DNA of 35,240 nucleotides from Fibrobacteria bacterium (lineage in GTDB: Bacteria > Fibrobacterota > Fibrobacteria > UBA11236): positions 1 to 35,240 of the forward strand of contig JBGTHM010000128.1 in NCBI GenBank assembly GCA_041746255.1, in the 5' to 3' direction. Below the pieces are notes generated by a model. It ran no database searches. It was not told where the DNA came from and was given only the letters and a program-made list of their open reading frames with translations. Both the position numbers and the translations under genes were made by a program. Shown here in pieces: positions 2,285 through 24,546 of this stretch; within the stretch, counting starts at the first letter, position 1; each line of letters begins with the position of its first letter.

Positions 2285-2298
2285 ACCGCCCCGAGGAA

Positions 2299-5011: not shown

Positions 5012-5178
5012 GGATAGGTTTGCCCAAACTACGCTTTTTTGCGTAAAAGTCCCAAATGATTAGAGCTCAAGTGATTATTTGATTCCCGCTCCGCAAAACA
5101 TAACTTTATAACCATGACGGTTTACCCTAGTTTCCGTTGGCATGGCCAATCGGAGGCGGACCTAGAGATCCAGACTAA

Positions 5179-8100
5179 ATGAAGATTTTCGTTACACTCT
5201 TAATCCACTTTTTTATTTCGCTTGCCATGGTGCAAGCTGACGTAAAGATTCAGCGGGGACAACTGGTTTTTCCGGATAAGTCCACGACAGCGCAGGCGAA
5301 CCTTCCCGTTGCGGTGGATCCCTCCCGGTCGGTGTTGCTTTTTTCCTATTCCCCCAAAAAAGAAGAGCCTCAGCATAATCTGGTAACCGGAGATTTTTCT
5401 GCGCCGGGTTCCTTGCTCTTCACCCGCACCGAGGGTGACGACCCCATAACCATCCAGTGGCAGACAATTGAGTTTAGTGGAAATGTGAAGGTGCTGAAAG
5501 GTCTGTCAGCCATCACCGGCCCCACCGAATTAGCCATCCAAGCGGTGGATACGCGGAAAGCCTTTCCGATTCTGCAGGTCAGATCACCGAGCGATGAATA
5601 TGGAGGGACTGACGGCATCACGCTCGACATCTTTGCACCCGATAAAATCCGACTGGCCGCGAATAAATACCGGGCAAATGACGGCCCTATTTGGGTTCAC
5701 TGGCAGATAATTGAATACGGAGGCGCAAAAGTCCAACAGGTCAAAGCCACCTTGGATCAAAAGTCCGTCGAGGTGGAGGCGCCTATAGAAAAAGTGGTGA
5801 TGGAAAATACCATGCTTTTCAATACGCAGTCTTTTTCCGATTTCACTTCCGCGGCCAACATCGGCATCAGCCAATTGGCCCCCTCGGGCGACAGGGTTAT
5901 TTTTTCGCGCGACCTGGCCGGAAATTCCCTGACATCGATGATTGGATACGTAGTTGAATTCATCGACGGAAGCCTGGTCTCGCATAATTCCGTTTCCTTC
6001 ACGGCGAACGTAAGGAGTCAGTCGGTAGACTTTACCGGCAATATCAATCGCAGCATCACCTGGATGCCCACGCAGCTGGGGCGGCAAGGGGCTGTGACGG
6101 GCAACGCTCTTTCTCACAAGGCCGCGGGCAATTATTGGATTGCGCACAACCTCGATGGTAAACAAGCCATATTGACCAGAAATGAAACGGGGGGCAGGGT
6201 GAGTGCGCCTTTGCAAATACTGACCTTCGCCCCACCTCCGCTAATCCTGGATCAGCCGGCGGACGTGGCGGTTTTGTCAGGGGCTCGAGCAATGTTCACA
6301 GTACGCGCCCAAAATGCCAAAGCTTACCAGTGGTATGACTTGACCGGCACACCCATCGCCGGAGCCACCCAGAACACCTATTCCCTCGCATCCGCGCTCT
6401 ACAGTGAATTTCCGCAGGGTTTTTATTGCAAAATCACCAACCATACGGATACCGTGACGACCAGGACAGCCTCCCTGAAGGTGGAATTGGAAAAACCTTC
6501 CAGACCGGTGGCTTCGCCCGCCGGTCCCCTGGAATTCGTGGATAGCCTTAAGGTGGGATTACGGGCGTCGCCGTCAGGCGCTACGCTTTACTACACCCTC
6601 AACGGAGACGCCCCCAGCATCAACAGCGCCCGCTATACCGATTCGATTTCATTAAACCGTACTACTACCCTAAAAGCCATCGCCATCGTCGGCAGTGAAT
6701 GGAGCGATGTCTTCTCAACCACCTATACACGCATCATTTTGCCCACCGCCGCAGCCCCGACCGGCGAAGTCGCCCTCCATTTATCGGATAGCACGACCCG
6801 TGTCACCCTTAAGAGCGGAACTTCCGCGGCCCGCATCCATTATACCTTGGACGGCTCGAAGCCCAGTGAACTCGCTGCCCGTTATGCGGATCCGATTTTG
6901 ATAACCGCACCGGTTACCTTGCGTGCCATCGCATTTGCGGATGGCCATACCCCCAGCGCGGAACTTTCCCAAAGCTTCGCGCCCCTCAAAGTACCCGAAA
7001 CCGCTGGAAATCCCGGCCAGGTCCATCTCCACGGCGACTCCACCTATGCAGTGGAGCCCGGATACTTGCTTAAAAACAATGCTGTCGGTTCAGGATCCGA
7101 AGTCGCCATTGCGCAAGTTGAACCGGAAGGCTTGAACCTCCCGGGATTTTCCGATGTGACCCAAGCCTTTCGGGTCACCGCCAAGGAGGCGAATGGAATA
7201 CTCAGCCTGAAATCCATCCGCATTCCACCTGGGGACAAATCGCTTTACCGAATCACGGAAAAGGGTGCTATACAGGCGGTATCGCATGCCGATTCGGGTA
7301 CGATTGACCAAGGGGCGGTTTATTTCTTCGGCAGGGACATCCAGCCCCCGCAAATCACCTTCGAGAAAGAAGGATTCATAGCAGGCGACTCGACGGAAGT
7401 AATTGTAAGAATCGTCGACAATATCGAAAATGTAAAACTGGAATTACGCCGTAGCGACAAACCCAACGTAATCACCGATGTGGCACGGGATGAGCAAGGA
7501 CGAATCCGGTTAATTGTCAAACCATCAGGTCCCGAAGTCCGAGGCATCGGGCTTTCGGTAAAGGCCATGGATGGGCGCAATACCCGGGTATTCCCCGCGG
7601 AAGGCGAAGATTACCTTCCTTCCCAGAGGTTTTCGGCGGGTAAATCGCCTTCCGTCTTAAGCCTGGGAAACACCCAAAGCGCTCCCTGGGACTTGGTGGG
7701 TTTTCCCTTGCGATTCCAGCAGGGATACTCCTTGGCCAAACTTCGCGACCGGAGCGGTTTTTCCGAATTGATGGCACTAACCTGGGATGAAAAACAGAAA
7801 AAATATACCCGAGTGGAAAGTAACCGCAACCTTACTCCGGGCATGGCGCTATGGATGGCTACCCCGGAGAAACACTCCGCTCTTCACTTGGAAGCGAGCG
7901 AAAACCAACAGTGTCCGGAATTCACCGCCGAGATCCGGGTATCTCCCGGGTGGAACATGGTTGCAAATCCCTGCTTGCAAAAAAAGTATTGGCCGGCCTC
8001 CCCTTCCGACCCAGATGCATTTTTCTCCAGTCCCCTGAAAGGCCTAAACGGTTATAAAGCCGGCGACTCCCCGGGCTATTTCAAAACGGATAGCTTAGAA

Positions 8101-8964
8101 CCCTGGAGAGGCTATTTCGTCTACTATTACGGCAGTCGCGATACCGTGGTAAAACTGCTTTCCCAACCGGTTGCCCCGAAGGCCATCGCCAAATCCGGTG
8201 AAGGGGTGACCGCTCCAGCCGTGTCTATTGATGTTTTTATGGCCTTCCGGGGAAATGGCGGAAGAACTTTGTGGTTGGGAGCGATGCCGGGCGCGGACTC
8301 ACCGACATCCTGGGAGGATGAGCCCGCACTTCCCAATTTCCAGGGGGGATGGGAGGCTTTCGCGGTTCGTGGCGGAAAGGCGTGGTCTACCGATATCCAG
8401 CGCTTTCGTGAGGATTCCGTTTTGCAATGGCGCGTAACAACTTCCAAAAGATCGCAGGGCCAACCCGGCGAGACTTTGCCGATTTCAGAGTTACGTTATC
8501 CGCGGGGATATGAGGTATGGGCGATTTCGTCCCTGCGTGGTTTAAAGTTCAAACTGGAAACGAATGGGGTGTTGCCCGCCTTTCAGGCAGGGGACACCTT
8601 AGACATTTTCGCCGGTCCCGCTTCGGCCCTGGAGCGGCTCGGAGCGTGGCGGCAGGCCGCTTGGGAAGCTCCCACCTTCAACTATCAGGCCTCGACGGAA
8701 TCGGGTGCCTGGCGCGTGGTCTTGCATTTACCCTCCCCGGCAAGGGTGAAACTTTCCCTGTGGACGGCGCTGGGGGAAAAATTGGAGGAACAGGCTCTTG
8801 GGTTTTTGGCGGAAGGCCGCTACGATTTCCGCTTTTCCCTCGGAAAGTCTTCTTCCCAAACCCCCTTCCCGGCCTTCCGGGGAAAATTATTTTCCCTATT
8901 GGAAATCGACGGTGGAGCCGGTTCCAAACTGCCACGGCGAAAAGTAATCCCCTTACAACCCTAA
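5179..8964 (+). CDS. Large secreted modular protein, paralog 1: four ~80-aa N-terminal repeats, one Ig, two Fn3-associated/chitobiase-C domains, shared C-terminal module
   Basis: Signal peptide MKIFVTLLIHFFISLAMVQA. Ig motif (YQWY...FYCKITN), YTLNGDAP and YTLDGSKP domains. C-terminal motifs PWDLVGFP, GWNMVANP and DSLEPWRGYFVY are shared with the other two paralogs. Confidence 0.85.
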   Translation: MKIFVTLLIHFFISLAMVQADVKIQRGQLVFPDKSTTAQANLPVAVDPSRSVLLFSYSPKKEEPQHNLVTGDFSAPGSLLFTRTEGDDPITIQWQTIEFSGNVKVLKGLSAITGPTELAIQAVDTRKAFPILQVRSPSDEYGGTDGITLDIFAPDKIRLAANKYRANDGPIWVHWQIIEYGGAKVQQVKATLDQKSVEVEAPIEKVVMENTMLFNTQSFSDFTSAANIGISQLAPSGDRVIFSRDLAGNSLTSMIGYVVEFIDGSLVSHNSVSFTANVRSQSVDFTGNINRSITWMPTQLGRQGAVTGNALSHKAAGNYWIAHNLDGKQAILTRNETGGRVSAPLQILTFAPPPLILDQPADVAVLSGARAMFTVRAQNAKAYQWYDLTGTPIAGATQNTYSLASALYSEFPQGFYCKITNHTDTVTTRTASLKVELEKPSRPVASPAGPLEFVDSLKVGLRASPSGATLYYTLNGDAPSINSARYTDSISLNRTTTLKAIAIVGSEWSDVFSTTYTRIILPTAAAPTGEVALHLSDSTTRVTLKSGTSAARIHYTLDGSKPSELAARYADPILITAPVTLRAIAFADGHTPSAELSQSFAPLKVPETAGNPGQVHLHGDSTYAVEPGYLLKNNAVGSGSEVAIAQVEPEGLNLPGFSDVTQAFRVTAKEANGILSLKSIRIPPGDKSLYRITEKGAIQAVSHADSGTIDQGAVYFFGRDIQPPQITFEKEGFIAGDSTEVIVRIVDNIENVKLELRRSDKPNVITDVARDEQGRIRLIVKPSGPEVRGIGLSVKAMDGRNTRVFPAEGEDYLPSQRFSAGKSPSVLSLGNTQSAPWDLVGFPLRFQQGYSLAKLRDRSGFSELMALTWDEKQKKYTRVESNRNLTPGMALWMATPEKHSALHLEASENQQCPEFTAEIRVSPGWNMVANPCLQKKYWPASPSDPDAFFSSPLKGLNGYKAGDSPGYFKTDSLEPWRGYFVYYYGSRDTVVKLLSQPVAPKAIAKSGEGVTAPAVSIDVFMAFRGNGGRTLWLGAMPGADSPTSWEDEPALPNFQGGWEAFAVRGGKAWSTDIQRFREDSVLQWRVTTSKRSQGQPGETLPISELRYPRGYEVWAISSLRGLKFKLETNGVLPAFQAGDTLDIFAGPASALERLGAWRQAAWEAPTFNYQASTESGAWRVVLHLPSPARVKLSLWTALGEKLEEQALGFLAEGRYDFRFSLGKSSSQTPFPAFRGKLFSLLEIDGGAGSKLPRRKVIPLQP

Positions 8965-9000
8965 TTCCCCAACAGGGCCGCTCCCAAAGCCTACCATTAC

Positions 9001-9030
9001 TTCTTGCGGGCCACCGCCAGCCCTTATAAT
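9001..9030 (+). promoter_or_regulatory. Possible sigma70 promoter for paralog 2
   Basis: Perfect TATAAT at 9025-9030, 25 nt before the ATG. The -35 is weak (TTGCGG with 15-nt spacer or TTCTTG with 18-nt spacer). Confidence 0.35.
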
Positions 9031-9055
9031 GGGTGGGCACCCGATCAAGTAAATA

Positions 9056-12000
9056 ATGCGTAAAGCCTTGATACCCCTATTGTTGTTTCTGGCAGCTCCC
9101 GGAATTCTCCGTGCCGAAGTTTCCATACTACGCGGCCAGGCAGTATTAAACGAAAAGGTTAAAGTTACCATCCCCTTGCCCAGACCCGTAGACACTACGC
9201 GCTCTCTCCTGCTCCATTCCCTTTCAGCCGTTGATCCCCAACCCTATAATGTCATGATTACCGTAACATTTTTGGATCCCCAAACACTTGTATTGCAACG
9301 CACAAAATCAAATGGATCCATTACGGTGAATTGGCAGGTATTGGAATTTTCCAGCGGAGTCCGTGTTCAGCGAGGTACGCTCCCCCTGAAGGAAGGCATA
9401 AAAGTCTATGATGTTCCCTTGAATCCGGTTAACCTGTCGAAGACGGTGGCCATGGGCGATATGCGATCGGACGGCTCAGCTTTGGGTTCCAATGAATATC
9501 TGACTACCGACCTGACCAGCGAAAAAAACTTGAGAATCGAGCTTTGGGATGGCCCGGGCGATGCGCCCCAGGAGGTGGTATGGCAAGTCTGGGAATACGC
9601 GGGCGCTACGGTGCAAAAAGTAAAATCCAGTCTACCTACCGGCGAATCCATTAAATCTTTTTCTATCGCTCCGGTTGATCCGGCTCAATCCATTATCCTC
9701 GGAGGAATCCGGAATAGCATGCAATGGTTGGTCATGGAGGAAATGCCTTCCTTTCGCCTGAATGAAAACGGAAGTGCGATAAACCTGCAGCGTTATCGAT
9801 CGAAAGACCTGAACGTCGAATTTTTGGGTTATGTGATGGAGTTTAATGACGGGACCCAAGTAATCCATCGGGACGTAAAATTTGAAAAAAACGACCTTCG
9901 CAAAGCAATAGCCGAGTCGTTTGATATCCAACATACCGCGCTTTTCATACCCGGTGACTTCGGACGCCAAGGCCGGATATTGGAATCGGTCGGATACACT
10001 GACAAAGTGGGTTTAATCTGGTTTTCCTATGAACAGAAACAAGATTCGGTTGTGATATCGAGAAGTCTAAAAGATGCTGGTGCCATGGCCGGATTGCAAA
10101 TGGTGTCGTTCGCATCCGCACCATCCATAACGACGCAGCCGCAAAACCAGAGTGTAACCGCCGGGTCAGACGCACTCTTCTCAATCACCGCCACCGGCCA
10201 GAATCTGAAATACCAATGGCTGGAAACGCCGGGCAACTCCCTTTCCGGCGCCATCTCCGCCCAACTTTCCCTACCCTCTCTGGCTATCCTGGATAGTGGG
10301 CGCATTTTCTATTGTCGGGTTACCAATGGAACCGATACGGTTTTTTCCGAAACCGCTGCGCTCTCCGTCACCTCCATACCAGGCACACCCATAATCCCCA
10401 AAGACACGGTCCCGCAACCCGGACCCATTCTCACCGATTCGAGTACACTGAAGTCTGGAGAAAAACGGGCCTTGGTCGGCGACACCCTCATTTTTCCCTC
10501 TGGTGGCGCCAACGTTACTATTGAGATACTGGGATTGCCCTCCAGCAGCTTGATCCCGCGCGGCTTCGCACCCATTGATACCAGCTTTTCGCTTGAGGTT
10601 AAAGGCGGTCAAGGCCCGGAGTTTCTCACCTGGAAGCCCCGTAACGGTACGGAAAGAAGTATCTACCGGATTGACCAGGGGAAAGCTTACTTCATAAGTC
10701 CCAATGGGTTGCATCAAATTCAGGCGCCGGGCGTCTATTTCGTAGCCCGGGATACCGACCCGCCGCACATATCTTTGGGACGTCAACAATTTTCCGAAGG
10801 GGATTCGCTACGCATCACGTTCACGGTGAGCGACAATGTGGAAAATTTGCGCGCAAACATCGCCCGCAGCGACGACCCCAAACGCGACATAAATAATGGT
10901 CCCCGTTCTCCCGGAGAGTGGACGTTCACTTTGAAAAATCCCTCCAATACGGTCAAACCCTTGGAGTTGCGCCTGGAAATCTCGGATGGAAGCCATACCA
11001 CCTGCTTTCCCGTCGATTGTAAAACCGGGTTTCCGCTTCCGCAACGCTTCGGAAAAATCGAAAGTCCCGCTGTACTCGCCATCGGAACCCATCGTGACTC
11101 CCCCTGGGATTTGGTGGGTTTGCCATTTCACCTTGATCCCGGTTTGAATGCGAACTCCATTTTCGGCAAATCGGATGCAGCGGACACCTACGTTTCCACT
11201 TGGGATGCGACAAAGAAAAATTACCGACCTGCCGCTGCGGATACCCGCATTAAATCCGGGACCGCCTTGTGGGTGGCTGCGCCGAACAGCCTGCAAAAGG
11301 TCACCTTAGACTCCGTGCAAACCCAACCCTTCGATTCGACGGGCACGGTGGAAATCCGACTCAGCCGAGGCTGGAACCAGGTAAGCAGCCCTCATCTTCG
11401 CACGAAATTCTGGCCCGTCTCAAGGAGTCATCCCGGATACCCGCAGTCTTCCGTCAAAGGGCTCCATGCCTACGACGCCAAATCCGGCGGGTTTCAACCC
11501 GTGGATTCATTACAGCCCTGGCGTGGTTATTTCGTGTACAGTAATGCGGCGGATACCATTGTACGCCTTTCGCATACACCTCCATCGACGCCCTCCGCCA
11601 AAGTCTCTTCACAAGGGCCACTCGCGCGATTGGAACTGACGTCCGCCCGGGATTGGGAAATCAGCACTCCTCTTTTCCTTTCCGCTCGGGAGGGTGCCAG
11701 GGATGGTCTGGGTATTGAGGATGAGTTTCTTCCCGCATCCCCCACGCGAGGTCTGTCGTTATTTTCCCGACAGTCTGGAGCGCGATTGTCCCGCGAAGAA
11801 ATCCCCTTCACACCGGATAGACCCATGCGCTGGGAGGTAATCGTAAAAGCCGGCGATTCCCAACGTTCCCAGGGTCCCTTAAGCCTTAGGGTCGTCGATA
11901 ATGCCTGGCCGGAGGGCTATGCCGCGGTAGCCTTTTCCCGCACTCGGCGCATCAGCTTCGCTTTGCAGCCGCTAGTCCCGCTGGAACTATCCCGCACCTT

Positions 12001-12364
12001 GGATGATACCCTGGATGTATGGCTTGGCAGCATGGAACAATTACGCTCAGGTGGATTTTCGGTGGAAAAAAATGCGCTACCGGAAAACTTCACGTACAGG
12101 CTAAATTACTGGGCAGGCGAACCGGTATTGATATTGACGCTTTCCAACTCTTTGGATATTCGTGCCCGGCTTTACACTTCCGCTGGAAGCCTCCTGAGTA
12201 CGCATGGCTTCGGCTTGGCTCCAGGACATTATCGCCTGCCAATCGGACTTCCCTCTGGCCTCAATAGGCGGACACAGACGAAAGCCGGCCCCTATTTCCT
12301 ACGTTTGGATGTGGATGACGGCAGGGGAAAGCGAAACTACGCCCTCCCCCTCTTGAGCCGCTGA
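9056..12364 (+). CDS. Large secreted modular protein, paralog 2: four ~80-aa N-terminal repeats, one Ig, Pro-rich linker, shared C-terminal module
   Basis: Signal peptide MRKALIPLLLFLAAPGILRA. Ig motif PSITTQPQNQ...YQW...FYCRVTN. Shared motifs PWDLVGLP, GWNQVSSP, DSLQPWRGYFVY and DGLGIEDE; tail KAGPYFLRL. Confidence 0.85.
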   Translation: MRKALIPLLLFLAAPGILRAEVSILRGQAVLNEKVKVTIPLPRPVDTTRSLLLHSLSAVDPQPYNVMITVTFLDPQTLVLQRTKSNGSITVNWQVLEFSSGVRVQRGTLPLKEGIKVYDVPLNPVNLSKTVAMGDMRSDGSALGSNEYLTTDLTSEKNLRIELWDGPGDAPQEVVWQVWEYAGATVQKVKSSLPTGESIKSFSIAPVDPAQSIILGGIRNSMQWLVMEEMPSFRLNENGSAINLQRYRSKDLNVEFLGYVMEFNDGTQVIHRDVKFEKNDLRKAIAESFDIQHTALFIPGDFGRQGRILESVGYTDKVGLIWFSYEQKQDSVVISRSLKDAGAMAGLQMVSFASAPSITTQPQNQSVTAGSDALFSITATGQNLKYQWLETPGNSLSGAISAQLSLPSLAILDSGRIFYCRVTNGTDTVFSETAALSVTSIPGTPIIPKDTVPQPGPILTDSSTLKSGEKRALVGDTLIFPSGGANVTIEILGLPSSSLIPRGFAPIDTSFSLEVKGGQGPEFLTWKPRNGTERSIYRIDQGKAYFISPNGLHQIQAPGVYFVARDTDPPHISLGRQQFSEGDSLRITFTVSDNVENLRANIARSDDPKRDINNGPRSPGEWTFTLKNPSNTVKPLELRLEISDGSHTTCFPVDCKTGFPLPQRFGKIESPAVLAIGTHRDSPWDLVGLPFHLDPGLNANSIFGKSDAADTYVSTWDATKKNYRPAAADTRIKSGTALWVAAPNSLQKVTLDSVQTQPFDSTGTVEIRLSRGWNQVSSPHLRTKFWPVSRSHPGYPQSSVKGLHAYDAKSGGFQPVDSLQPWRGYFVYSNAADTIVRLSHTPPSTPSAKVSSQGPLARLELTSARDWEISTPLFLSAREGARDGLGIEDEFLPASPTRGLSLFSRQSGARLSREEIPFTPDRPMRWEVIVKAGDSQRSQGPLSLRVVDNAWPEGYAAVAFSRTRRISFALQPLVPLELSRTLDDTLDVWLGSMEQLRSGGFSVEKNALPENFTYRLNYWAGEPVLILTLSNSLDIRARLYTSAGSLLSTHGFGLAPGHYRLPIGLPSGLNRRTQTKAGPYFLRLDVDDGRGKRNYALPLLSR

Positions 12365-12949
12365 TTAGCTGACCATTTGCCGGCGTGCATTCCGGTAAAG
12401 TTGTGCATGCCAAGATTGACCCAGTGGCTTTTCAAATTTCCCCTCCGCAAAATCGCCCACTCGACTCAGGGTGGTATCGAATACGGGGGTTTCCTCATCG
12501 ATTTCCCCTGTCTGCGCCAGGACTTTAAACTCGCTTCTATTGACCATTTGCACGATGCCATCCGGATTCCGGAAAAAAATCCGACTGGAATCGAGCAATT
12601 GCGTACCCATGGCCGTTTCGATCTGCATAATCGCCTGCTGCATACTGTCCAGGCTGCACCCCGAGAGCGCCGTTCCATCCGGTTCTGAGATAATTAATAG
12701 AAAGTACTGCTCCCAAACCTGCCAGCGACCACACAGGGGTGCGCCATGGGAGGCCCAGCCGGCGAAAAATTCGGCCAAAAGTGCGCGTAAACGAGGATCT
12801 TCGCCGTCCAAGGGAAGAGAACTCCCAAAAACCCAACAACGCTCCTGGGCATATCGCGGATTTATTGCCAAGGCGCCCACTATGTCAGATGGAGCAAAAC
12901 CGGAAGGCTTGACCGCTTCTCCCTGTCCATTTTTCATGATTCCATCCAT
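12365..12949 (-). CDS. Conserved hypothetical protein with WxSHG and SGCSxDS motifs
   Basis: Motifs W-A-S-H-G, L-S-G-C-S-L-D-S and a C-terminal VFDTT...SWH. No Walker A motif. A GGAGG SD precedes ATG 12949. Confidence 0.7.
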   Translation of the reverse strand: MDGIMKNGQGEAVKPSGFAPSDIVGALAINPRYAQERCWVFGSSLPLDGEDPRLRALLAEFFAGWASHGAPLCGRWQVWEQYFLLIISEPDGTALSGCSLDSMQQAIMQIETAMGTQLLDSSRIFFRNPDGIVQMVNRSEFKVLAQTGEIDEETPVFDTTLSRVGDFAEGKFEKPLGQSWHAQLYRNARRQMVS

Positions 12950-13093
12950 CACAACCTCCATTTTATGGAAAATACATTAAAGCGCCCTCGAATAGAGGGA
13001 TACCGGGCGTGAAGGCACACTTCAATTTTTTGAGTTTAGGTGGAAGTGCCCCAGGTTTTCAAAGTGGGTCCCAACTCTCGCAAAACTCTATTT

Positions 13094-13121
13094 TTGTCCC
13101 CAATAAATTAAAGCATATTAT
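13094..13121 (+). promoter_or_regulatory. Candidate sigma70 promoter for paralog 3
   Basis: TTGTCC (13094-13099), an AT-rich 16-nt spacer, then TATTAT (13116-13121). Confidence 0.5.
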
Positions 13122-13313
13122 GGGGTGTAGAGACCCCAAGCTAAACTTGGACTCAAAGCCGTAAGGGAAATTCCGGGTAATCTGGATGTAAATGTGATTA
13201 TGAGTACTTACCTTTTAAGCCAAGCTATTCCCGAAGTTACGGGAAACAGGAAAAAGCCTCTCGGCTTGACCGGCTTATGGCGCGTTCTACTTAAAAAAAT
13301 TATTGGGTTGTTG

Positions 13314-16300
13314 ATGCGTAAAGAATTTTGGAGATGGATGGTTCTGCTAAGAATCGTTATCCCTATCATAGCTATAGCTCAGCCCGGGGGAGCTCAACCC
13401 GGTCAACCCATTAATGTTAACGCGGTGCCTGGAGTTCAGATGGCTACCGTGTCATGGGAGCCGACTGGATCTGCTACCTCATTACAAAATTTCGATTTGT
13501 ACTATTCCGAAGGTGAGGAAAAACTTGATGAAGGTTCCTTAGCCTCGTACAAAAAAATCGGTGACATCACTGACTGGACGCAAGTCGTCTCATCCCTGGA
13601 GGCCAATCAAGCCTATTCTTTCGCGGTGCAGGCCAAGCTGCTTCTAGGTGGCAACCTCACATTATCTCCACTGAGCGAAACCGTGACGGCGACGCCGTTA
13701 CCACCCCCAAATATACCACCCACTGTCTCTCTCACTTCCCCAACAGCAGGACAGTCCTTTCTCGCTCCGGCTAATATCGCCCTCTCCGCAAATGCCAGTG
13801 ATGCCGACGGCTCCGTAACCAAAGTTGAATTCTTTAACGGAGTTACAAAAATCGGGGAAGCGCTTGCCGCTCCCTACAATTTCGCCTGGAACAGCGTCGC
13901 CCCTGGGGCCTATTCCCTGACTGCCAAAGCCACCGATAATCAAGGGGCTACAACAACCTCCGCGGCCGTCGCCATCACCGTAACGGAGCCGATACCCAAC
14001 CAACCGCCTACGGTTTCCCTCACCTCACCTACAGCCGGACAATCCTTCCTCGCACCGGCAAATATCTCTCTCTCCGCAAATGCCAATGATGCAGACGGCT
14101 CGGTGACCAAAGTCGAGTTCTTTAACGGAGCTACTAAAATCGGAGAAGACCTGGACGCGCCCTACAATTTTGCCTGGAACAGCGTCGCCCCTGGAGCCTA
14201 TTCCCTGACCGCCAAAGCCACCGATAATCAAGGAGCAACAACAACCTCCGCAGCCGTGGCCATCACCGTAAACGCACCTAACCAGCCACCTACGGTTTCC
14301 CTCACCTCACCTACAGCCGGACAATCCTTCCTCGCACCGGCGAACATCGCCCTCTCCGCAAATGCCAGCGATGCGGACGGCTCCGTCACCAAAGTCGAGT
14401 TCTTCAACGGAGCTACTAAAATCGGAGAAGACCTGGACGCGCCCTACAATTTCGCCTGGAACAACGTCGCCGCTGGAGCCTATTCCCTGACCGCCAAAGC
14501 CACCGATAATCAAGGGGCTATAACAACCTCCGCAGCCGTGGCCATTACCGTAAACGCGCCCAACCAACCCCCTTCCGTCTCACTCACCTCTCCAACTCAA
14601 GGTCAAGCCTTTCTCGCACCGGCGAATATCTCCCTCACCGCAAATGCGAGCGATGTGGACGGATCCGTCACAAAGGTCGAGTTCTTCAATGGAGCCACTA
14701 AAATCGGGGAAAAAGTGGGAGCCCCATTCTCCTTTGGCTGGAACGACGTTCCTGCCGGAGCCTATTCCTTTACCGCCAAGGCCACGGATAATCAAGGGGC
14801 AACGACAACCTCAACGGCCGTGGCCATCACCGTGACCGATCCCGTTATCCCCCCTCCGGCGCAACCCACAGCCACCCCGATCGGGGGAAGTTACAATAAT
14901 CCTCAAAGCGTCACGCTCACTACATTAACCAGCGGCGCTACCATAAGGTATACTTTGAATGGCAACGATCCAACCGTCAGCACGGGGATCCTATATGCCA
15001 ACCCCATTTCCATTTCCGCGACAACCACGTTGAAGGCGATAGCAGTAAAAGACGGCGTTGCAAGCTCCATACTAACGCAAGTCTATACCATAAACAATCC
15101 ACCCACAGTGACCTTAACTTCTCCAGCTAACGGGACGATATACAGGGCTCCCGCCAGCATCACCGCCACGGCAACCGCTTCCGACCCGGATGGTCCCATA
15201 GCCAAAGTGGAGTTCTATTTCAATAATGAACTTAAACAGACTGCCACAGCCAGCCCCTATACTTACACACTCAGCGACGCAGCAGCTGGAGGCTATACAA
15301 TATATGCCAAAGCCTTCGATGCCCAAGGACACTCAGCCACTTCCGCTTCTGTTACGATTATTGTAAATCAACCTCCCACAATCTTCTGGGTTTCCCCAGC
15401 CAACAACTCCACCTTCACCACGGCCGACAAAATCTCGCTAAGCGCCAATGCCAGCGACGTTGACGGGACCATTGCCAAGGTTTCCTTTTTCAGGGGAAAT
15501 ATCAAAGTGGCGGACGTCTTGCAGCCCGCCTCAGGTTCGACCTACACTTACCTTTGGAGTCTTCCGCCCGTGGGCAGCCATGCGCTCAGGGCAGTGGCCT
15601 ACGACAATAGGGGTGACTCAACTCTCACTCTGGTCCGCAACATTACGGTAAACGATTCCACAAACAAGGCGCCCACAGTGTCCATCACCAAGCCCGCCAA
15701 CGAGGCCAAATTCGTGGCAGGGGCACAAATCACTCTGGAGTCCACCGCCTCGGATCCCGATGGCAGCATTGCCCGGGTTCAATATTTTTACGCGGGAAAT
15801 ACTTCCATCGGCCAATCCATCGTGGGGCCCGCCTATCCGGTCACATGGAACTCCGTGCCTGCGGGTACCTACGCGCTGACCGCCCGGGCTACCGATAATG
15901 GTGGCGGCAGCGGGAACAGCTCCATCATCAGCATTTCCGTCACCTTACCCGCCCCTTCCGGGGTCAAAGCCGCACCCGGCAACAACTCCGCCACGATTAG
16001 TTGGAATGCCGTTGCAGGCGCCACTAATTACAACCTCCACTACAATGCCGGCGTGAATGTAAATAGTTCGGCGATCACCTTCTCCAATATCCAGGGAACT
16101 TCATATACGGTATCGGGACTCACCAATGGCCAACAATATGCCTTCGCCGTATCGACGGAGGGTCCCGGCGGCACCTCACCTCGTAGCGCCAAGGTAAATG
16201 CGACTCCTAACCCCCAATCTCCCCCTGCCCCTCCGGCCAATCTGACCGCCACCGCTCAGGATGCCACTATTTCCTTATCCTGGACCGCGTCAAGCGGAGC

Positions 16301-19300
16301 CACAAAATATACCGTGTACTATGCACAGGGTAATACGGTAACTACAACCAATTCCATCAAACTGCAAAACATAACGGTAACCTCCTCAGTAATCGACGGC
16401 CTGACAAACGGCACCAATTACACCTTCGCGGTTACCGCACACAATGTCGCCGGTGAATCCGATCTCAGCAACTCACGCACCATAGCCCCGGTAGGAAATC
16501 CACCCGTCTTAGGCGACATAACGCCTACCCAAGGGACAAAGTTTGTCGGCCAGAACCACCAAATATCCGTGACTACCACCGGAGGCACGCCCCCCTTCAC
16601 CTATCGCTGGACTTTGAACGGAACCACCATTCCCGGGGCTACCAGCAATGTGCTATCCATTCAAAACGCCCAGCTAGATGACGCCGGCAAATATGCGGTT
16701 GTGGTATCCAATCCCTACGGCAACGCGACGAAATCTTCGACATTGAACGTCAACCAACGAAAAGTCGCATTGGCCAGAGCCACACCAGAAGCCCGCTCCT
16801 ACACCGAGCCTTTGACGATTTCAGTCAGCACCAACACCCCGTCCACTGTTATCCATTATACGCTGGACAATTCCGTGCCATCCCCACAAAGCCCTAAGTA
16901 TGATCCGGCGGCGAAAATCATCTTGAGCGGTCAAACCGTGGTATTGAAAACGCGTGCCTTCCAGACCGACTACCTGGATAGTGATATTTTTTCTGCAACT
17001 TATACATACGTACCTCCCGGTCAAGCACTTGCCCCGAGAGCCGAGCCGGTGGATTCAGTCTTCACGGGTTCGTTGAACGTAACTTTGATATCCGAAACCG
17101 AAGGCGCCGATATTCATTACACATTGGATGGAAGCGTACCCACGGCCGCGTCCGCAAAATATTCCGCGCCCATCGAAATTAACCGTGACACCCGGATCAA
17201 GGCAATCGCAGTCAAGGCAGGACTTCTTTCCAGCACCGTAATGGAAAAGTCGTATACGCGTTTCATTCCCACGGTTCGCGCCCTCAAACCCATAGCCGAC
17301 CCTACAGGACTGGAATTCTCCGATTCCATTCTGGTTCGACTTACCACCCAGACATCGGGTGCGGAAATTCTTTATGCTCTGAACGACTCCACTGCGCAGT
17401 CGGCTAATTGGCCGGTTTACAACCCCGCAACGGGACTTACTTTAAAACGTTCCACGCAACTGCGCGCCCTCGCCCGCAGGGTCGACCTCCTTCTCAGCGA
17501 TACGCTTATCGAGGTATACACGCAATTACCGACCACGCCTACCTCATTACAACCGGGCGATTCGATTTTCGCCGGGACGGTCGAAGTAGATTTACTTACT
17601 TCTCCCGTGGGCGCCTCCATTCATTACACCCTCGACGGCTCCAACCCTCTTACCGCCGAACGACAACCTGCGCCGAATAGCCTGTTATACAATACTGAAG
17701 AGCCCATACTCATCAACTCTTCGCGGATCCTCAAGGCGGTTTCTTTCCTGAACGGGAAAGCCAGCCGTGGCGTATTGACGAACTTTTACCTCAAGGAAGG
17801 CGAGCCTCTCCCTTCCCCCGCAGCCAATCCTTCCGCCACCAGTTTCGGAGATACCCTTCGCGTGTTGTTGCGGAGCGCCTATGAATCCCGAATCTATTAC
17901 ACCTTGGATGGCAGCATACCCACAACTGCCAGCACGGAGTATACCGGGGCGCCCGTGAAAATTTCGGAATCGGTGATTTTACAGGCAATCGCCGTCAAAT
18001 CGGGTTTTCCGAATTCCAAAATCATGGTAGAGCGGTATACCTTTATTCCACCGACGCCTACCGCAACTCCTGCGGGAGGAAATTTCGTTGACAGAGTTAC
18101 CGTACAACTCTCCGGCCATGCACCCGGGGTCGAGATCAGGTATACCACCGATGGCCGCTCTCCGCTGGCGGGAAATGCCTTGGTCTATAACTCCGCGGAA
18201 GGTATTACGCTTACCACCACATCGACCCTTATGGCCTATACCGCTTCAGGCGGCCAGGCCAGCGAAGTCTTGACGGAGAATTATTATATCACGGGAGCCA
18301 GCGATACCCTGCTATTGGCGGGAGAAACGATGAGTCTCCCCGGCGGCTATTCGCTTGCCAGTCCCATTAATTCTCAATCCGACGTCTCGGTCCAGTTGGT
18401 TGGGGGCGAATCCGTTTCCGTGGCGGGATTTTCGGACAGAAGATTCGGAATGCAAATTGCCGTTACCGACCCTTCCATGTCGTTTCCGCACCTCCATTTT
18501 TCCGGCCCTCCCGGCTCGAATCACGCACTTTACCGTAGGCAATCCGACGGTCGCGTCCAATTCATTTCCTCTTCGGACAGCGGGCTTATTACGGAAGCTG
18601 GGCTCTACGTTCTTGCGATCGATATCGTACCGCCTCAAATCGTGGTACTGGACAAAAGTTTCGACGCCAATGACTCCACACGCATTCGCATACAAATCCT
18701 AGACAACGTATCCAACTTGTCCTATAGCATTAAGCGGAACGATGATACGGTTACGTTGGTGGAAAATCTTCCGATTTCCAGCCAAGACATCCTTGAATTC
18801 ATGCTCAAGCATCCTACCGGCGTTTTCAAACCCTTGCTGGCCCAAGTGATAGTCACCGATCACCACAATCAACAGTTTTTTCCTCCTAACCCGACAGCGC
18901 GTTACGGGGTCCCGCAAAAACTCCGCAACGTTAAAAGTCCCTCGGTATTCCGAATCGCCCAACCCCAAGCCGCTTCGGATTGGGATTTGATAGGCTTTCC
19001 CTTCAAGGCCAACCCAGCCATTACGACTTCGCAGCTGCAAGAAAGCCATTCCGGCACCCGCTTTTCCGCCTCGGATTGGAATGCCAAGCTCGGCCCCCAT
19101 GAGGGCATGAAACCGGGGAAAGGCTTCTGGTTGAACTCCTCCAAGGCCGTGAATATCCTGCAATTCCCCCAATTGGAGACCGCCGATTTCGTGACGGACA
19201 GTATCACGGTCAAGCTTTCACCGGGTTGGAATACCATTTCTTCCCCCTATTTGGAAACGCTCTATTGGCCGCATAGCCGGGAATTTCCCGACCAATACGG

Positions 19301-20210
19301 CCCATCGCTCATCAAAGGTTTGAATCATTGGAACCCGCAAACAGCCTCGTATACCTATCCCGACTCATTGGAACCCTGGAGAGGTTATTTCGTGTATAGC
19401 TATGCCACCGCTGACACGACGGTAAGACTGCTTGCGCGCCCGCCCGACAAGCCCATCTTATTGAAGAAAGAAAGCGCGGCCAATCGAGTGGAACTCCGAG
19501 TGCAACTTGAGCAGGAAACCCCCATTTGGCTTGGCGCAGCCCCCTTCGCAGACGATGGCCTGGGCATCGAGGATGAATTCAGCCTTCCCAAACGAAGTGG
19601 CGCCACTTCCGCCTGGGCCGTTCGAGGTTCCACCGCCTTGCAAACCGATATGGTCCATTTCGCTCCAGGGGAATTGCTGCGATGGCGGATCGTCCTCGCC
19701 GGTAAAGCCACTGGCGACTCCCTTCCGGCTATTCGCATCACCAAGGCCATACTCCCGGGGGGATATGAAGCTTGGGCCTTCTCCCGCTCCCGAAACATGA
19801 AATTCCCCTTACCCGACGGGGCAACCGTTAGCCTCTCCGGGTTATCCCGAGATACCTTGGAAATCCTTGCGGGCCCTGCTGCCAAAATGGCGGGAATCGC
19901 CGATTTCCGCAACCTGACCCGATTGGAAAAGCTCAATTTGAGCGCTATTCCTATGGACGGTGATTTCCAGGTTAGCCTGCAAATTCCGGGTTTATCACGC
20001 ATACGCTTAAGTGTGTGGAACCTGCAGGGACAACGATTGGGAGAACTGAATCCCGGAAGGCTGGCCGAGGGTCGCTATCGATTCACCTTTTCCCAGGATT
20101 TTGGCCATAAAGGCCGGAATCGGCTTTCATCGGGTATGTACTTCCTCTTAGCGGAAATTAGGGATGATAAAGAATCCCACAGGTTGGTAAAACGACTGCC
20201 CATCCGTTAA
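13314..20210 (+). CDS. Giant secreted modular protein, paralog 3 (~2300 aa): FN3, 4x Big, Fn3-assoc, 3x Big, 2x FN3, Ig, 6x Fn3-assoc, shared C-terminal module with T9SS-like CTD
   Basis: ATG 13314 gives a signal peptide MRKEFWRWMVLLRIVIPIIAIA-Q (the ORF track starts at 13194). NxPPTVSLTSP...KVEFF...YSLTAKATDN repeats, FN3 'LTNGxxYxFAV' motifs and seven Y(T/A)(L/T)(D/N) domains. Tail LSVWNLQGQRL...LSSGMYFLL...LVKRL. Confidence 0.88.
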   Translation: MRKEFWRWMVLLRIVIPIIAIAQPGGAQPGQPINVNAVPGVQMATVSWEPTGSATSLQNFDLYYSEGEEKLDEGSLASYKKIGDITDWTQVVSSLEANQAYSFAVQAKLLLGGNLTLSPLSETVTATPLPPPNIPPTVSLTSPTAGQSFLAPANIALSANASDADGSVTKVEFFNGVTKIGEALAAPYNFAWNSVAPGAYSLTAKATDNQGATTTSAAVAITVTEPIPNQPPTVSLTSPTAGQSFLAPANISLSANANDADGSVTKVEFFNGATKIGEDLDAPYNFAWNSVAPGAYSLTAKATDNQGATTTSAAVAITVNAPNQPPTVSLTSPTAGQSFLAPANIALSANASDADGSVTKVEFFNGATKIGEDLDAPYNFAWNNVAAGAYSLTAKATDNQGAITTSAAVAITVNAPNQPPSVSLTSPTQGQAFLAPANISLTANASDVDGSVTKVEFFNGATKIGEKVGAPFSFGWNDVPAGAYSFTAKATDNQGATTTSTAVAITVTDPVIPPPAQPTATPIGGSYNNPQSVTLTTLTSGATIRYTLNGNDPTVSTGILYANPISISATTTLKAIAVKDGVASSILTQVYTINNPPTVTLTSPANGTIYRAPASITATATASDPDGPIAKVEFYFNNELKQTATASPYTYTLSDAAAGGYTIYAKAFDAQGHSATSASVTIIVNQPPTIFWVSPANNSTFTTADKISLSANASDVDGTIAKVSFFRGNIKVADVLQPASGSTYTYLWSLPPVGSHALRAVAYDNRGDSTLTLVRNITVNDSTNKAPTVSITKPANEAKFVAGAQITLESTASDPDGSIARVQYFYAGNTSIGQSIVGPAYPVTWNSVPAGTYALTARATDNGGGSGNSSIISISVTLPAPSGVKAAPGNNSATISWNAVAGATNYNLHYNAGVNVNSSAITFSNIQGTSYTVSGLTNGQQYAFAVSTEGPGGTSPRSAKVNATPNPQSPPAPPANLTATAQDATISLSWTASSGATKYTVYYAQGNTVTTTNSIKLQNITVTSSVIDGLTNGTNYTFAVTAHNVAGESDLSNSRTIAPVGNPPVLGDITPTQGTKFVGQNHQISVTTTGGTPPFTYRWTLNGTTIPGATSNVLSIQNAQLDDAGKYAVVVSNPYGNATKSSTLNVNQRKVALARATPEARSYTEPLTISVSTNTPSTVIHYTLDNSVPSPQSPKYDPAAKIILSGQTVVLKTRAFQTDYLDSDIFSATYTYVPPGQALAPRAEPVDSVFTGSLNVTLISETEGADIHYTLDGSVPTAASAKYSAPIEINRDTRIKAIAVKAGLLSSTVMEKSYTRFIPTVRALKPIADPTGLEFSDSILVRLTTQTSGAEILYALNDSTAQSANWPVYNPATGLTLKRSTQLRALARRVDLLLSDTLIEVYTQLPTTPTSLQPGDSIFAGTVEVDLLTSPVGASIHYTLDGSNPLTAERQPAPNSLLYNTEEPILINSSRILKAVSFLNGKASRGVLTNFYLKEGEPLPSPAANPSATSFGDTLRVLLRSAYESRIYYTLDGSIPTTASTEYTGAPVKISESVILQAIAVKSGFPNSKIMVERYTFIPPTPTATPAGGNFVDRVTVQLSGHAPGVEIRYTTDGRSPLAGNALVYNSAEGITLTTTSTLMAYTASGGQASEVLTENYYITGASDTLLLAGETMSLPGGYSLASPINSQSDVSVQLVGGESVSVAGFSDRRFGMQIAVTDPSMSFPHLHFSGPPGSNHALYRRQSDGRVQFISSSDSGLITEAGLYVLAIDIVPPQIVVLDKSFDANDSTRIRIQILDNVSNLSYSIKRNDDTVTLVENLPISSQDILEFMLKHPTGVFKPLLAQVIVTDHHNQQFFPPNPTARYGVPQKLRNVKSPSVFRIAQPQAASDWDLIGFPFKANPAITTSQLQESHSGTRFSASDWNAKLGPHEGMKPGKGFWLNSSKAVNILQFPQLETADFVTDSITVKLSPGWNTISSPYLETLYWPHSREFPDQYGPSLIKGLNHWNPQTASYTYPDSLEPWRGYFVYSYATADTTVRLLARPPDKPILLKKESAANRVELRVQLEQETPIWLGAAPFADDGLGIEDEFSLPKRSGATSAWAVRGSTALQTDMVHFAPGELLRWRIVLAGKATGDSLPAIRITKAILPGGYEAWAFSRSRNMKFPLPDGATVSLSGLSRDTLEILAGPAAKMAGIADFRNLTRLEKLNLSAIPMDGDFQVSLQIPGLSRIRLSVWNLQGQRLGELNPGRLAEGRYRFTFSQDFGHKGRNRLSSGMYFLLAEIRDDKESHRLVKRLPIR
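13710..14837 (+). repeat. Four tandem intragenic repeats encoding bacterial Ig-like domains (period 288/282/282 bp)
   Basis: Units start at 13710, 13998, 14280 and 14562. Units 2 and 3 differ at about 21 of 282 nt by manual alignment, mostly synonymously. Confidence 0.95.
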
Positions 20211-20319
20211 CCCGTTCCACTTTCATTCCGGTAAACCCGCAACTGTCGCTTGCATCCAAACCGGAAATCGGGTTAAATTAAATCCAGACAAGTCCGCACG
20301 GAAAAAGGAAGTCGCCTTC

Positions 20320-22158
20320 ATGAAGGGAAAGCCGGGCCCCCAAGGGCCTATTGCGTTTTTTTGTTTGATCTGGATATCCTCCCTATCCCTCCTGCAGGCG
20401 CAGGATAGGGATATCCGCCGGGCGGAGGGATATCTGAAAAAACACCTACGTAGTCTGGAAAAAGAATATGACCTCCCGAAATGGGATAAACGCCTGCAAC
20501 GGGCCCACCAAACCCATGCCAAGCTCGCCGAACAGGCAGAAGACAAAAAAAGTCTCTCTCCCTCCTTCCATTCCAAATTGAAAAATTTCGAAACGGAAAT
20601 CTCCCAACTGGGGAGTTCCAGCCTGGCTTTCAATACCTATCTGAATCAGTTGAATATCTCGAATCTAGGAAGCCGCGTCGACGCCGATTTCAAGCGGGAC
20701 GGTCGAAGTTTTCCTCTGGAGAAGCGGTTGGAATTCCAACATAAAATCCGTCCCGGAACTTTGGATAAAATGAAGGATGTGCGTTTTTTCCAAATGCGTT
20801 TTGCTACCCTCCAAACGGATTTCACCCGGCTCAAAGCCGAGTGGATGTTCGCATATAGCGTGGATTTCCTCTCAAAACACGTCCAATCCCTGCTCAATAG
20901 TCACCGCTTCCATGAAAGCGAAGCGCTCTTCGATGACTTATCCCTGCAACTTTCCTATTGGAGCCAAGCCTCGACCGGCGACGCATCTCAAGCGCAGAAG
21001 CGCATCGAAGAACTATACCGGACTTATGAGGCCCGTAAATCGGCGGTTTTGGGTAGCCTGCATAACCTGCTCGAAGTCCTGCATACCGACATGCTGTTCA
21101 GCGACTTGCTCGCCCGGGCCAGCGAAGACGGGGTGGAATTCACCCTCAGTGTCGAAGAACGCATAGAATCGTCGCTCAAAGCACAGGCCGTAGCGCACTT
21201 GATGCCTATTCGGCAACGTATAGACGGATGGCGAAGACTGGAGGATAACATGCGGGACGGTCTGGCTCAAGTAGCCCGGATGCGCGAAAGCCAAAGGGAA
21301 CAGCTCGTGGCAGAAGAACAGCTCCGTCGCATGGAGGAAGCGCGGATGACCGCCCTTCGGGCGGAACAGGAAAGAGTCGAACGCGAACGCAAACAACGCT
21401 TGGAAAGCGCTTTGAGCGCATTAAGCAGTTTTGATCTCAAAGCCGGATCCGATATTCAGCTAGACCAGGACGCCCAGGTGGCTTTAAACCGGAAAAACCC
21501 CCAACGGCTGACATCCACCACCCACGTGGGTTCCGCACAAAAACAGCTGCATGTTCCCAAACAGGCGTTTTCCGATTCGCTGACCCAAGTAGAAAAATTC
21601 GTGGTGGAAGAATCCCGCATGAACTTGTCCAACTTGACCCTGGACGAACGCTCCGCCCATAGCCTTTACGTCTATACCTCACCGGAGGGACGGACTACCC
21701 CGAAAGACCTGAACCAATTCGTACAGGATATCGCCCTCACTTCCTTTGGCGCCGACCCGAATTTCATCACTTATCGTACTCCAGCCGAATGGTCTCCCGG
21801 TACGCGTATCCGCTGGTCTCCCGATCGGCACGATCCCAAAGCGGTCAAGGATCGCGAATTCAGCTTCGTAGGACTGGTTGTCGACGCGCATAGGAAGCGA
21901 AGCGACAACTCCAAGGATGCCCATGTTGCCAATACCGTAAATCTGACGCCGAATATGCTGATCATTTTCGGCCCGCAGGGGCAGGTAATCCGCTACCAGA
22001 CGTTTTCAGACATCAACTCGCTGGTTATATCGCGCGGCGATTTACGGGAGGGAAAGCTTCACTACAAGTTTTTAAACTACTCCGCCGACCGCAGTCGGAT
22101 TTACCTCAACGGCATCGACCATGAGGTAAAAGTCAGCCATCCCAACGGTAAATCTTGA
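20320..22158 (+). CDS. Secreted hypothetical protein with helical/coiled-coil N-terminal half and globular C-terminal domain
   Basis: Signal-peptide-like IAFFCLIWISSLSLLQA-QD and an E/R/Q-rich heptad stretch (MRESQREQLVAEEQLRRMEEARMTALRAEQERVERERKQRLE). Possible TTGCAT-N18-TAAATT promoter at 20250-20279. Confidence 0.7.
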   Translation: MKGKPGPQGPIAFFCLIWISSLSLLQAQDRDIRRAEGYLKKHLRSLEKEYDLPKWDKRLQRAHQTHAKLAEQAEDKKSLSPSFHSKLKNFETEISQLGSSSLAFNTYLNQLNISNLGSRVDADFKRDGRSFPLEKRLEFQHKIRPGTLDKMKDVRFFQMRFATLQTDFTRLKAEWMFAYSVDFLSKHVQSLLNSHRFHESEALFDDLSLQLSYWSQASTGDASQAQKRIEELYRTYEARKSAVLGSLHNLLEVLHTDMLFSDLLARASEDGVEFTLSVEERIESSLKAQAVAHLMPIRQRIDGWRRLEDNMRDGLAQVARMRESQREQLVAEEQLRRMEEARMTALRAEQERVERERKQRLESALSALSSFDLKAGSDIQLDQDAQVALNRKNPQRLTSTTHVGSAQKQLHVPKQAFSDSLTQVEKFVVEESRMNLSNLTLDERSAHSLYVYTSPEGRTTPKDLNQFVQDIALTSFGADPNFITYRTPAEWSPGTRIRWSPDRHDPKAVKDREFSFVGLVVDAHRKRSDNSKDAHVANTVNLTPNMLIIFGPQGQVIRYQTFSDINSLVISRGDLREGKLHYKFLNYSADRSRIYLNGIDHEVKVSHPNGKS

Positions 22159-22167
22159 GCGCTGCGA

Positions 22168-22995: not shown

Positions 22996-23008
22996 GAAAT
23001 TGTGACGG

Positions 23009-23713: not shown

Positions 23714-23714
23714 G

Positions 23715-24455: not shown

Positions 24456-24546
24456 TAACATCCTCTTTCGACCCTTTCGGAAAGATACAAATCAAATACA
24501 AGGCTCTGAAAGCCGCTGCGATAAGCTGCTATATTATATCCGGATC

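Follow-up and report, generated by a model that had tools for sequence, protein, structure and literature searches.

A conserved four-domain base ahead of a putative type IX sorting domain in large, predicted secreted proteins of an uncultured Fibrobacteria bacterium

Introduction

The window analysed here, positions 1 to 35,240 of contig JBGTHM010000128.1, belongs to the genome of an uncultured Fibrobacteria bacterium (assembly GCA_041746255.1, 4.59 Mb in 130 contigs). Between positions 5179 and 20210 of the forward strand it encodes three large proteins, P0001, P0002 and P0003, which carry different N-terminal parts on a similar C-terminal part. The question raised by this locus is what the common C-terminal cassette consists of, and what it may do for the proteins that end with it. 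Type IX secretion system (T9SS) cargo is usually described as functional domains plus a C-terminal sorting domain (CTD). We find that the cassette comprises five domains, A to E. The export tag is already known; the new element is the four-domain base A-D, above all domains C and D.

Three genes with a common C-terminal cassette

Gene 1 (5179..8964, + strand) encodes P0001, a protein of 1261 amino acids (aa) for which the open reading frame (ORF), its translation, Pfam and BLASTP give a signal peptide, a head, an immunoglobulin (Ig)-like domain, two Fn3_assoc domains and the cassette A-E. Gene 2 (9056..12364, +) encodes P0002 (1102 aa), with a signal peptide, a head of the P0001 type, an Ig-like domain (aa 356-424), domains A-D at 10433..12088 and the CTD at 12089..12361. 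Gene 3 (13194..20210, +) encodes P0003, which has 2338 aa when read from the GTG at 13194; a signal peptide is followed by an array of ~1650 aa made up of fn3, Big_7, Ig and Fn3_assoc domains, by domains A-D at 18291..19931 and by the CTD at 19932..20207. P0003 contains no cysteine. Its true start is probably the ATG at 13314 (M41), because the N-terminus from there matches that of the relative P0007 and reads as a signal peptide. Sec signal peptides were readable by eye in the translations of all three proteins, that of P0003 from M41 and in comparison with P0007. The signal peptide of P0001, MKIFVTLLIHFFISLAMVQA (5179..5238, +), shows in translation a basic residue and a hydrophobic core, followed by VQA.

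In pairwise BLASTP comparisons, the C-terminal 620-640 aa were 30% identical in each pair, with E-values of 3e-65 for P0001 and P0002, 6e-66 for P0002 and P0003, and 5e-93 for P0001 and P0003, the last alignment including Fn3_assoc repeats. Judged by these alignments, the similarity of the three tails is far above chance. The motif DxxPPxI lies at aa 720 of P0001, 566 of P0002 and 1810 of P0003 (nucleotides 7336, 10751 and 18621), leaving 542, 537 and 529 aa, respectively, to the end of the protein. A three-way alignment showed further invariant or near-invariant columns, namely DN(I/V)xN..R(S/N)D, FP..Q(R/K)..SPxV, WDL(V/I)GxP, GWN..P..WP..KGL, DSLxPWRGYFVY..DTxVxL, EDE and PxGY, as well as GF..YR..Y upstream of DxxPPxI. 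An initial annotation of the window had described three co-oriented proteins with a common C-terminus, and all of its motifs, distances and positions were reproduced exactly. It had also regarded them as a family of secreted, modular and non-enzymatic paralogs without a recognisable catalytic domain. The analysis supports this view, with secretion as a prediction. Pfam detected no enzyme family in P0001, P0002 and P0003, nor in any of 31 close and 26 distant relatives.

The last domain as a sorting tag

From profile comparisons, we conclude that the last ~95 aa, domain E, are a divergent type-A T9SS CTD and thus belong to a known family. An hhalign comparison of 33 family tails with 30 above-cut-off Por_Secre_tail CTDs of the same genome gave a match with a probability of 96.1% (E 3.1e-9) over 74 columns. 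Domain E is modelled as a seven-stranded Ig-like beta-sandwich at the extreme C-terminus, as in type-A CTDs (TIGR04183 / PF18962). The tail consensus, with G.Y, G.YFL and a basic end, resembles what we take to be motifs B, D and E of such CTDs. A profile search of the Protein Data Bank (PDB) with the module returned just weak matches of the FlgD Ig domain to the tail (E 0.27-0.42).

The source genome encodes SprA (491.8 bits, cut-off 200), the sortase PorU (T9SS_sortase, 442.7 bits, cut-off 420) and PorV (PorV_fam, 159 bits, cut-off 90). It further contains 95 Por_Secre_tail matches, 56 of which are marked above the cut-off. Since the tail matches a CTD profile, T9SS genes are present and Sec signals are readable, P0001, P0002 and P0003 have, as far as can be read from sequence, the layout of T9SS cargo. 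Export had been attributed to the shared module in the initial annotation. A sorting tag does lie inside the tail, but it is that of a known T9SS family and is separate from the new part of the module.

Predicted structure of the cassette

Residues 620-1261 of P0001, numbered 1-642 in the module, were modelled with AlphaFold2 on an alignment of 33 sequences. The model is all-beta and consists of five domains, with a mean predicted local distance difference test score (pLDDT) of 84.8 and a predicted template modelling score (pTM) of 0.78. Domain A (module 1-100; 7036..7335, +), delimited by the three-way alignment and the AlphaFold2 strands, is beta-rich and contains the motifs GF..YR..Y. Domain B (103-198; 7342..7629, +) is a sandwich that opens with DxxPPxI and carries DNxxN..RxD; as modelled, it is an ordinary Ig-like fold. 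In domain C (~205-380; 7648..8175, +), a beta domain without a name, the models place WDLxGxP, GWN..P, WP, KGL and LxPWRGYFVY. A disordered linker rich in Pro, Ala and Lys (383-395) leads to domain D (~400-545; 8233..8670, +), a beta-sandwich with G..EDE, PxGY and DTL, and the divergent CTD, domain E (548-642; 8677..8961, +), ends the protein.

When domains C and D were modelled without the others (347 aa, 36 sequences), the pLDDT was 86.8 and the pTM 0.86. Because the C-D model reaches these values, we infer that the two domains pack as a single body. The prediction of a two-copy C-D complex scored 0.00 against a mark of 0.42, which counts neither for nor against self-association. An internal duplication of domain C was considered on account of the resemblance between 'W.L..P ... 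L.PG..W' and 'GWN..P ... L.PW.GY', and was rejected, as hhalign of the two halves gave a probability of 4% (E 0.0098, 22 columns). No likeness between domains C and D was found with hhalign.

Search for relatives among known families and folds

Pfam matched none of 33 module sequences at E <= 0.01; two matches at 0.039 and 0.062 were single spurious rows. NCBIfam gave no match to domains A-D, and among 11 distant relatives scanned at E <= 0.5 no Pfam model, including any carbohydrate-binding module (CBM) or lectin family, fell on the module region. The initial annotation knew of no named family for the module. That stands for A-D, to which no Pfam or NCBIfam family was matched, but not for the last ~95 aa, the T9SS sorting domain. 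Relatives are named in the databases only as 'hypothetical protein' or as 'chitobiase/beta-hexosaminidase C-terminal domain-containing protein', and the latter name describes the spacer repeats.

In structural searches, Foldseek of C-D against the PDB found nothing at E <= 1e-3, and domain C, searched within the C-D model and not folded alone, was covered by none of the listed PDB matches. The whole cassette retrieved from the PDB generic Ig-array proteins only, such as alpha-2-macroglobulins, contactin and titin, with template modelling (TM) scores of ~0.1. A kinship with alpha-2-macroglobulin was rejected, the query TM score being 0.12-0.13 and the root-mean-square deviation 34-40; P0001, P0002 and P0003 contain no CxEQ. 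In the ESM Atlas, C-D matched unnamed clusters only, at 0.92-0.93.

The sole match to C-D at the level of the fold was the BFVD entry A0A8D9C8P8 (Foldseek E 2.3e-9, probability 1.00, query TM score 0.57, 377 columns, 13% identity). This entry is an uncharacterised predicted structure of 587 aa, labelled 'Putative hemin binding protein [uncultured marine phage]'; the hemin-binding part of the name may, at a guess, come from an HBP35-like CTD. It could stem from a bacterial contig filed among viral sequences, or represent a T9SS cargo module carried by a phage. A tblastn search of 50,697 phage records with the module gave no match.

Distribution and position of the module

The source genome contains five full copies of the module, three in the window and two in ORFs of 2218 and 1321 aa on other contigs, as well as one partial relative. 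The latter, a 1345-aa ORF at 2315-6352 (-) of contig C80, has only the domain C part (profile 231-410, E 8e-8), a weak terminal Por_Secre_tail match and a different N-terminus; a homolog search with it returned three proteins, none of them named. A profile of A-D was searched against 1.84 billion representative proteins (50%-identity clusters) and matched 732 of them at E <= 1e-3; a threshold of 1e-10 left 149 and one of 1e-30 left 105.

In reference genomes, the whole module was found at 19 loci. Seventeen of these are titled as metagenome-assembled genomes (MAGs) of Fibrobacteria, Fibrobacteres or Fibrobacterota, and the other two as 'uncultured bacterium' and 'Bifidobacteriales' (locus L024). 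Fibrobacterota had correctly been guessed in the initial annotation. The label of L024, 'uncultured Bifidobacteriales bacterium', is probably wrong; its gene order matches that of the window over nine genes, with protein identities of 52-88%. Among 201 sampled Fibrobacterota genomes, the full module was confined to the family of the source genome, where 14 of the 21 other genomes (13 of 20 without the unpublished G194) have 2-7 copies each. Ten genomes of other Fibrobacterota families in this sample gave partial matches only (profile ~250-500, E 1e-11 to 1e-15). Outside the Fibrobacteria-titled set, distant copies (1-3 per genome) were found in five genomes, titled Calditrichaeota (one), Bacteroidetes (one) and 'bacterium' (three), each of which encodes SprA.

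The full module was always C-terminal. At all 19 genome loci the ORF ends 88-119 aa beyond the module match, and of 128 collected relatives with a match extending as far as profile position 500, 123 have a tail of 80-130 aa (median 97); the five exceptions are four tails of 134-150 aa and one fragment. In 71 complete proteins, the N-terminal part measured between 158 and 1960 aa. FlgD_ig and/or Por_Secre_tail stands terminally, right after the module, in 23 of 26 distant relatives, and a T9SS tag follows it in all 11 distant relatives that were re-scanned at E <= 0.5. A near-minimal form is the distant relative P0130 (576 aa), in which the signal peptide is immediately followed by DVTPPVI, the module and the CTD. 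Apart from one fragment, a complete stand-alone module was not seen in the close family, in a search limited to relatives sharing short exact words.

Distant copies retain a signature of G-W-N (26-27 of 27), P113 and G160 (27/27 each), Y161 (26/27), L155 and P157 (25/27 each), W158 (20/27), W120 (23/23), D229 (21/23) and P290 (19/19). Within the EDE motif, E228 and E230 are specific to the family and are not kept in distant relatives. In other phyla, B-C-D stands immediately ahead of T9SS sorting domains and carries unrelated N-termini, and in one case it makes up almost the whole protein; on this comparative evidence it is an autonomous unit.

Variation of the N-terminal parts

The heads of P0001 and P0002 are homologous (BLASTP, 29% identity over 490 aa, E 1e-50). 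The head shared with P0002, aa 21-352 of P0001 (5239..6234, +), belongs to no known family, has no match by sequence in the PDB and matched only phage-labelled clusters in the ESM Atlas, with scores below 0.9. This type of head is present in just four of 156 collected relatives (P0001, P0002, P0013 and P0108). It had been annotated as four repeats; repeats 1 and 2 do align (z 8.8), but the other five pairs reach z <= 2.3.

The domain content given for the N-termini agrees with our Pfam scan of the three proteins. Two Fn3_assoc / CHB_HEX_C_1 domains lie at aa 461-594 of P0001 (6559..6960, +; E 3.5e-27 and 3.3e-28, two stretches each). P0002 has none of these domains and a weak Ig_3 match (21.3 bits, cut-off 30), and P0003 has seven Big_7, seven Fn3_assoc/CHB_HEX_C_1, two fn3 and one Ig_3/I-set domain. 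Within gene 3, Tandem Repeats Finder detected a tandem DNA array at 13715..14833 (+), with 3.9 copies of a 282-bp period that corresponds to one Big_7 domain and 85% matches. These 282-bp units point to recent growth of the Ig array through unit duplication.

Four kinds of N-termini were found in 31 close relatives: long arrays of Ig, Big_7, PKD, He_PIG and fn3 domains; Fn3_assoc domains only; DUF2341 with Laminin_G_3 (7/31); and heads of no known family. Of the 31, 25 have Fn3_assoc/CHB_HEX_C_1 domains ahead of the module and six have none. The N-termini of 26 distant relatives contain ASH/HYDIN-type Ig, Sortilin/BNR, LVIVD, FG-GAP/ASPIC, cadherin-like, beta-helix, PMP repeat and InhA-MAM domains. 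Differing N-termini are carried by close and distant homologs alike.

A module tree was obtained from a quick IQ-TREE search with 36 modules, comprising those of the three window proteins, the two other paralogs of the source genome and the 31 relatives scanned with Pfam; relatives without an architecture scan were excluded. Architecture classes clustered on this tree, requiring 10 changes against a mean of 22.2 after shuffling (0 of 200 shuffles as low). DUF2341 formed a single clade, the giant arrays required two changes and two classes four changes each. One well-supported clade spans protein lengths of 1086 to 2096 aa. Because architecture classes cluster with module clades, we conclude from the tree that architectures are mostly inherited in old paralog lines, in which they are occasionally replaced and often change in array length. 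The N-terminal arrays, which had been called interchangeable, do differ and are occasionally swapped, but architecture mostly follows the phylogeny of the module, and interchange would apply to deep time only.

Proposed role and alternative explanations

We consider it moderately likely that these proteins are T9SS-exported, probably surface-anchored, adhesin-like fibrils standing on a conserved cell-proximal pedestal. Each protein begins with a Sec signal peptide and continues with a variable N-terminal array, which is either a unique head or a run of Ig-type domains of up to ~1650 aa; a constant cassette A-E of ~640 aa completes it. Domain E would carry the protein through the SprA translocon, after which the PorU sortase would remove it and the end of domain D, now the C-terminus, would be joined to a surface glycolipid. 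A-D would then stay as a membrane-proximal pedestal, from which the variable array would project outward as an adhesin-like fibril with a reach and a tip that differ per paralog. This mechanism is modelled on studied T9SS systems as described in a review (PMC10202324), and anchoring that depends on lipopolysaccharide (LPS) and the CTD is reported for Cytophaga (PMC12860637). Secretion, cleavage, anchoring, orientation on the cell and the adhesin role are accordingly put forward here by analogy. A-D may serve in anchoring, polymerisation or as a scaffold, and candidate tasks of C-D are surface retention, surface organisation or ligand binding.

Several observations weigh against this proposal. 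The tail of P0003 scores 12.8 bits (E 0.088) against the Por_Secre_tail cut-off of 23 (TIGR04183, NCBIfam), the tails of P0001 and P0002 have no Por_Secre_tail match in NCBIfam, and the contig of the window holds none of the 95 Por_Secre_tail matches in the genome. The conserved residues of C-D are for the most part G, P and W, whose role could be structural only. Anchoring after removal of the CTD is known from Bacteroidota, from which the present proposal would extend it to Fibrobacterota.

A further reading concerns B-C-D, which occurs in at least 732 50%-identity clusters, in Fibrobacterota and in at least one Calditrichaeota-labelled and one Bacteroidetes-labelled MAG. It might be an undescribed, widespread 'pre-CTD' unit of T9SS cargo that, once the protein has been translocated, serves as a second element for sorting or anchoring and defines a distinct class of surface-retained cargo, on which lineages would mount arbitrary N-terminal arrays. 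B-C-D could, for example, let a newly attached protein dock onto LPS, onto a partner in the outer membrane or onto the attachment complex of PorU and PorV. We regard this as rather unlikely. We are similarly doubtful that the proteins are released and bind a ligand, such as a carbohydrate polymer, through C-D itself, in which case the CTD would serve for export only, the arrays would be spacers or extra binders and no oriented fibrils would exist. The near-minimal P0130, with a signal peptide, B-C-D and a CTD, implies a unit that works without an array, invariant aromatic and polar residues (GWN, W, PWxGY, D229) persist in distant relatives, and Fn3_assoc/CHB_HEX_C_1 domains are frequent ahead of the module. 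However, the module contains no detected CBM or lectin family, its conserved G, P and W residues may belong to the core, and the presence of PorU and PorV makes attachment possible.

The pairing of a small and a giant paralog brings to mind an S-layer-like sheet, in which the cassettes of both would co-assemble, as in TfsA/TfsB, with the arrays projecting from it. A tandem of a ~1270-1340-aa member followed by a ~2010-2350-aa member is present in the source genome and recurs in 9 of 14 further genomes with matches from the same family (8 of 13 when G194 is left out). The 2-7 copies per genome and the compact packing of the C-D model (pTM 0.86) would also suit a lattice. Yet the tandem may be just synteny inherited among related genomes, and distant relatives occur as only 1-3 copies per genome; a lattice seems improbable to us. 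Hardly credible, finally, is a cryptic enzyme, with C-D as a new catalytic fold that uses the conserved acidic residues (EDE / D229) together with N108. E-D does not vary among 36 family sequences, 21 of 23 distant relatives retain D229 and no PDB fold match rules a function in or out, but E228 and E230 are lost in distant relatives and no catalytic family was detected anywhere in the proteins. An all-beta module beside a sorting tag, under long Ig arrays, is moreover typical of a structural surface protein.

Comparison with known systems

Type-A T9SS cargo, such as RgpB and HBP35 of Porphyromonas gingivalis, RemA of Flavobacterium johnsoniae and mirolase of Tannerella forsythia, likewise combines a Sec signal with a terminal seven-stranded Ig-like sandwich, ends with the tag and comes from genomes that encode SprA, PorV and PorU. 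It is treated in reviews (PMC10202324, PMC11969387). Unlike this cargo, the window proteins have tails below the TIGR04183 cut-off and a conserved A-D cassette of ~550 aa ahead of the tag. The 'long CTDs' of PMC11969387 are ordinary seven-strand CTDs and are distinct from A-D. Within excerpts of the open-access T9SS literature (PMC11969387, PMC12860637 and PMC10202324), no description of a conserved pre-CTD module was found.

The giant gliding adhesins SprB and RemA of F. johnsoniae resemble the window proteins in their very long Ig-type repeat arrays, in their export by the T9SS and in being held at the surface. SprB has a type-B CTD and a PorP/SprF partner, and the CTD of RemA is contained in PDB 8gl6_D. 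We know of no A-D cassette in SprB or RemA. TfsA and TfsB are encoded by two adjacent genes and are large, Ig-rich, non-enzymatic T9SS cargo that covers the cell surface. The window family is alike in having adjacent genes for large Ig-rich non-enzymatic cargo, an analogy from gene pairing alone, and differs in its 2-7 members per genome and its very long arrays. That these T. forsythia S-layer proteins are T9SS cargo is stated in PMC8869499. With secreted proteins containing Fn3_assoc / CHB_HEX_C_1 domains (PF13287 / PF13290), the family shares the two such domains of P0001 and the seven of P0003. This name fits the spacer repeats, not the cassette, and P0002 and 6 of the 31 close relatives have no such domain.

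The unit described here, of ~450-550 aa, has a confident predicted structure but belongs to no Pfam family, and the PDB offers no convincing counterpart. In hundreds of protein clusters it directly precedes a CTD, and in one family of Fibrobacterota it has expanded to 2-7 paralogs per genome. Should surface retention or organisation depend on it, the T9SS sorting model would gain a step, the building of a surface coat in these uncultured bacteria would be explained and a natural scaffold for display would be at hand. Should it serve as a structural pedestal only, it is still a clean new domain family that deserves a name.

Gene neighbourhood

In the source genome, P0001 and P0002 are encoded between thiD and a conserved gene on the opposite strand (12365-12961, -) for a 198-aa protein of no known family, and P0003 beyond the latter. 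This protein also occurs beside thiD and a family member in L024 (70% identity), L009 and L010 (50-56%) and L022 (39%), and the slot after thiD and the 198-aa gene is taken by a family member in all four loci. The head of the P0001/P0002 type was absent from all fetched loci, where comparable positions hold small members with other N-termini. A scan of 4900-22300 for promoters and terminators gave counts that did not exceed the shuffled expectation.

Downstream of gene 3, P0004 (20320..22158, +) comprises 612 aa, and its translation shows a signal peptide and a long predicted coiled coil; it belongs to no known family and had no match in Pfam, NCBIfam or the PDB. A homolog follows the giant member in L024 (62%), in L012, L016 and L017 (36-37%) and, weakly, in L025, and P0004 is a possible partner of the giant protein. 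At 22168-24461 (-), an ABC ATPase gene has on either side a gene of no known family (275 and 248 aa). L024 and L012 keep this trio together with P0004, and L016 and L017 do so in part. At 1364-4152, a gene for an AAA_5 (MoxR-like) ATPase is followed by one for a 617-aa protein of no known family. In L009 and L010, a counterpart of the latter with 56-57% identity is encoded upstream of thiD.

One subfamily of module genes has an OmpR-type response regulator directly downstream (L011, L013, L014, L015, L018 and L023), and a histidine kinase comes next in L011, L013, L015 and L018. This adjacency may reflect shared regulation, or just synteny. In the source genome, a 587-aa ORF resembling a membrane protein (C53:73347-75110) comes after a paralog of the module.

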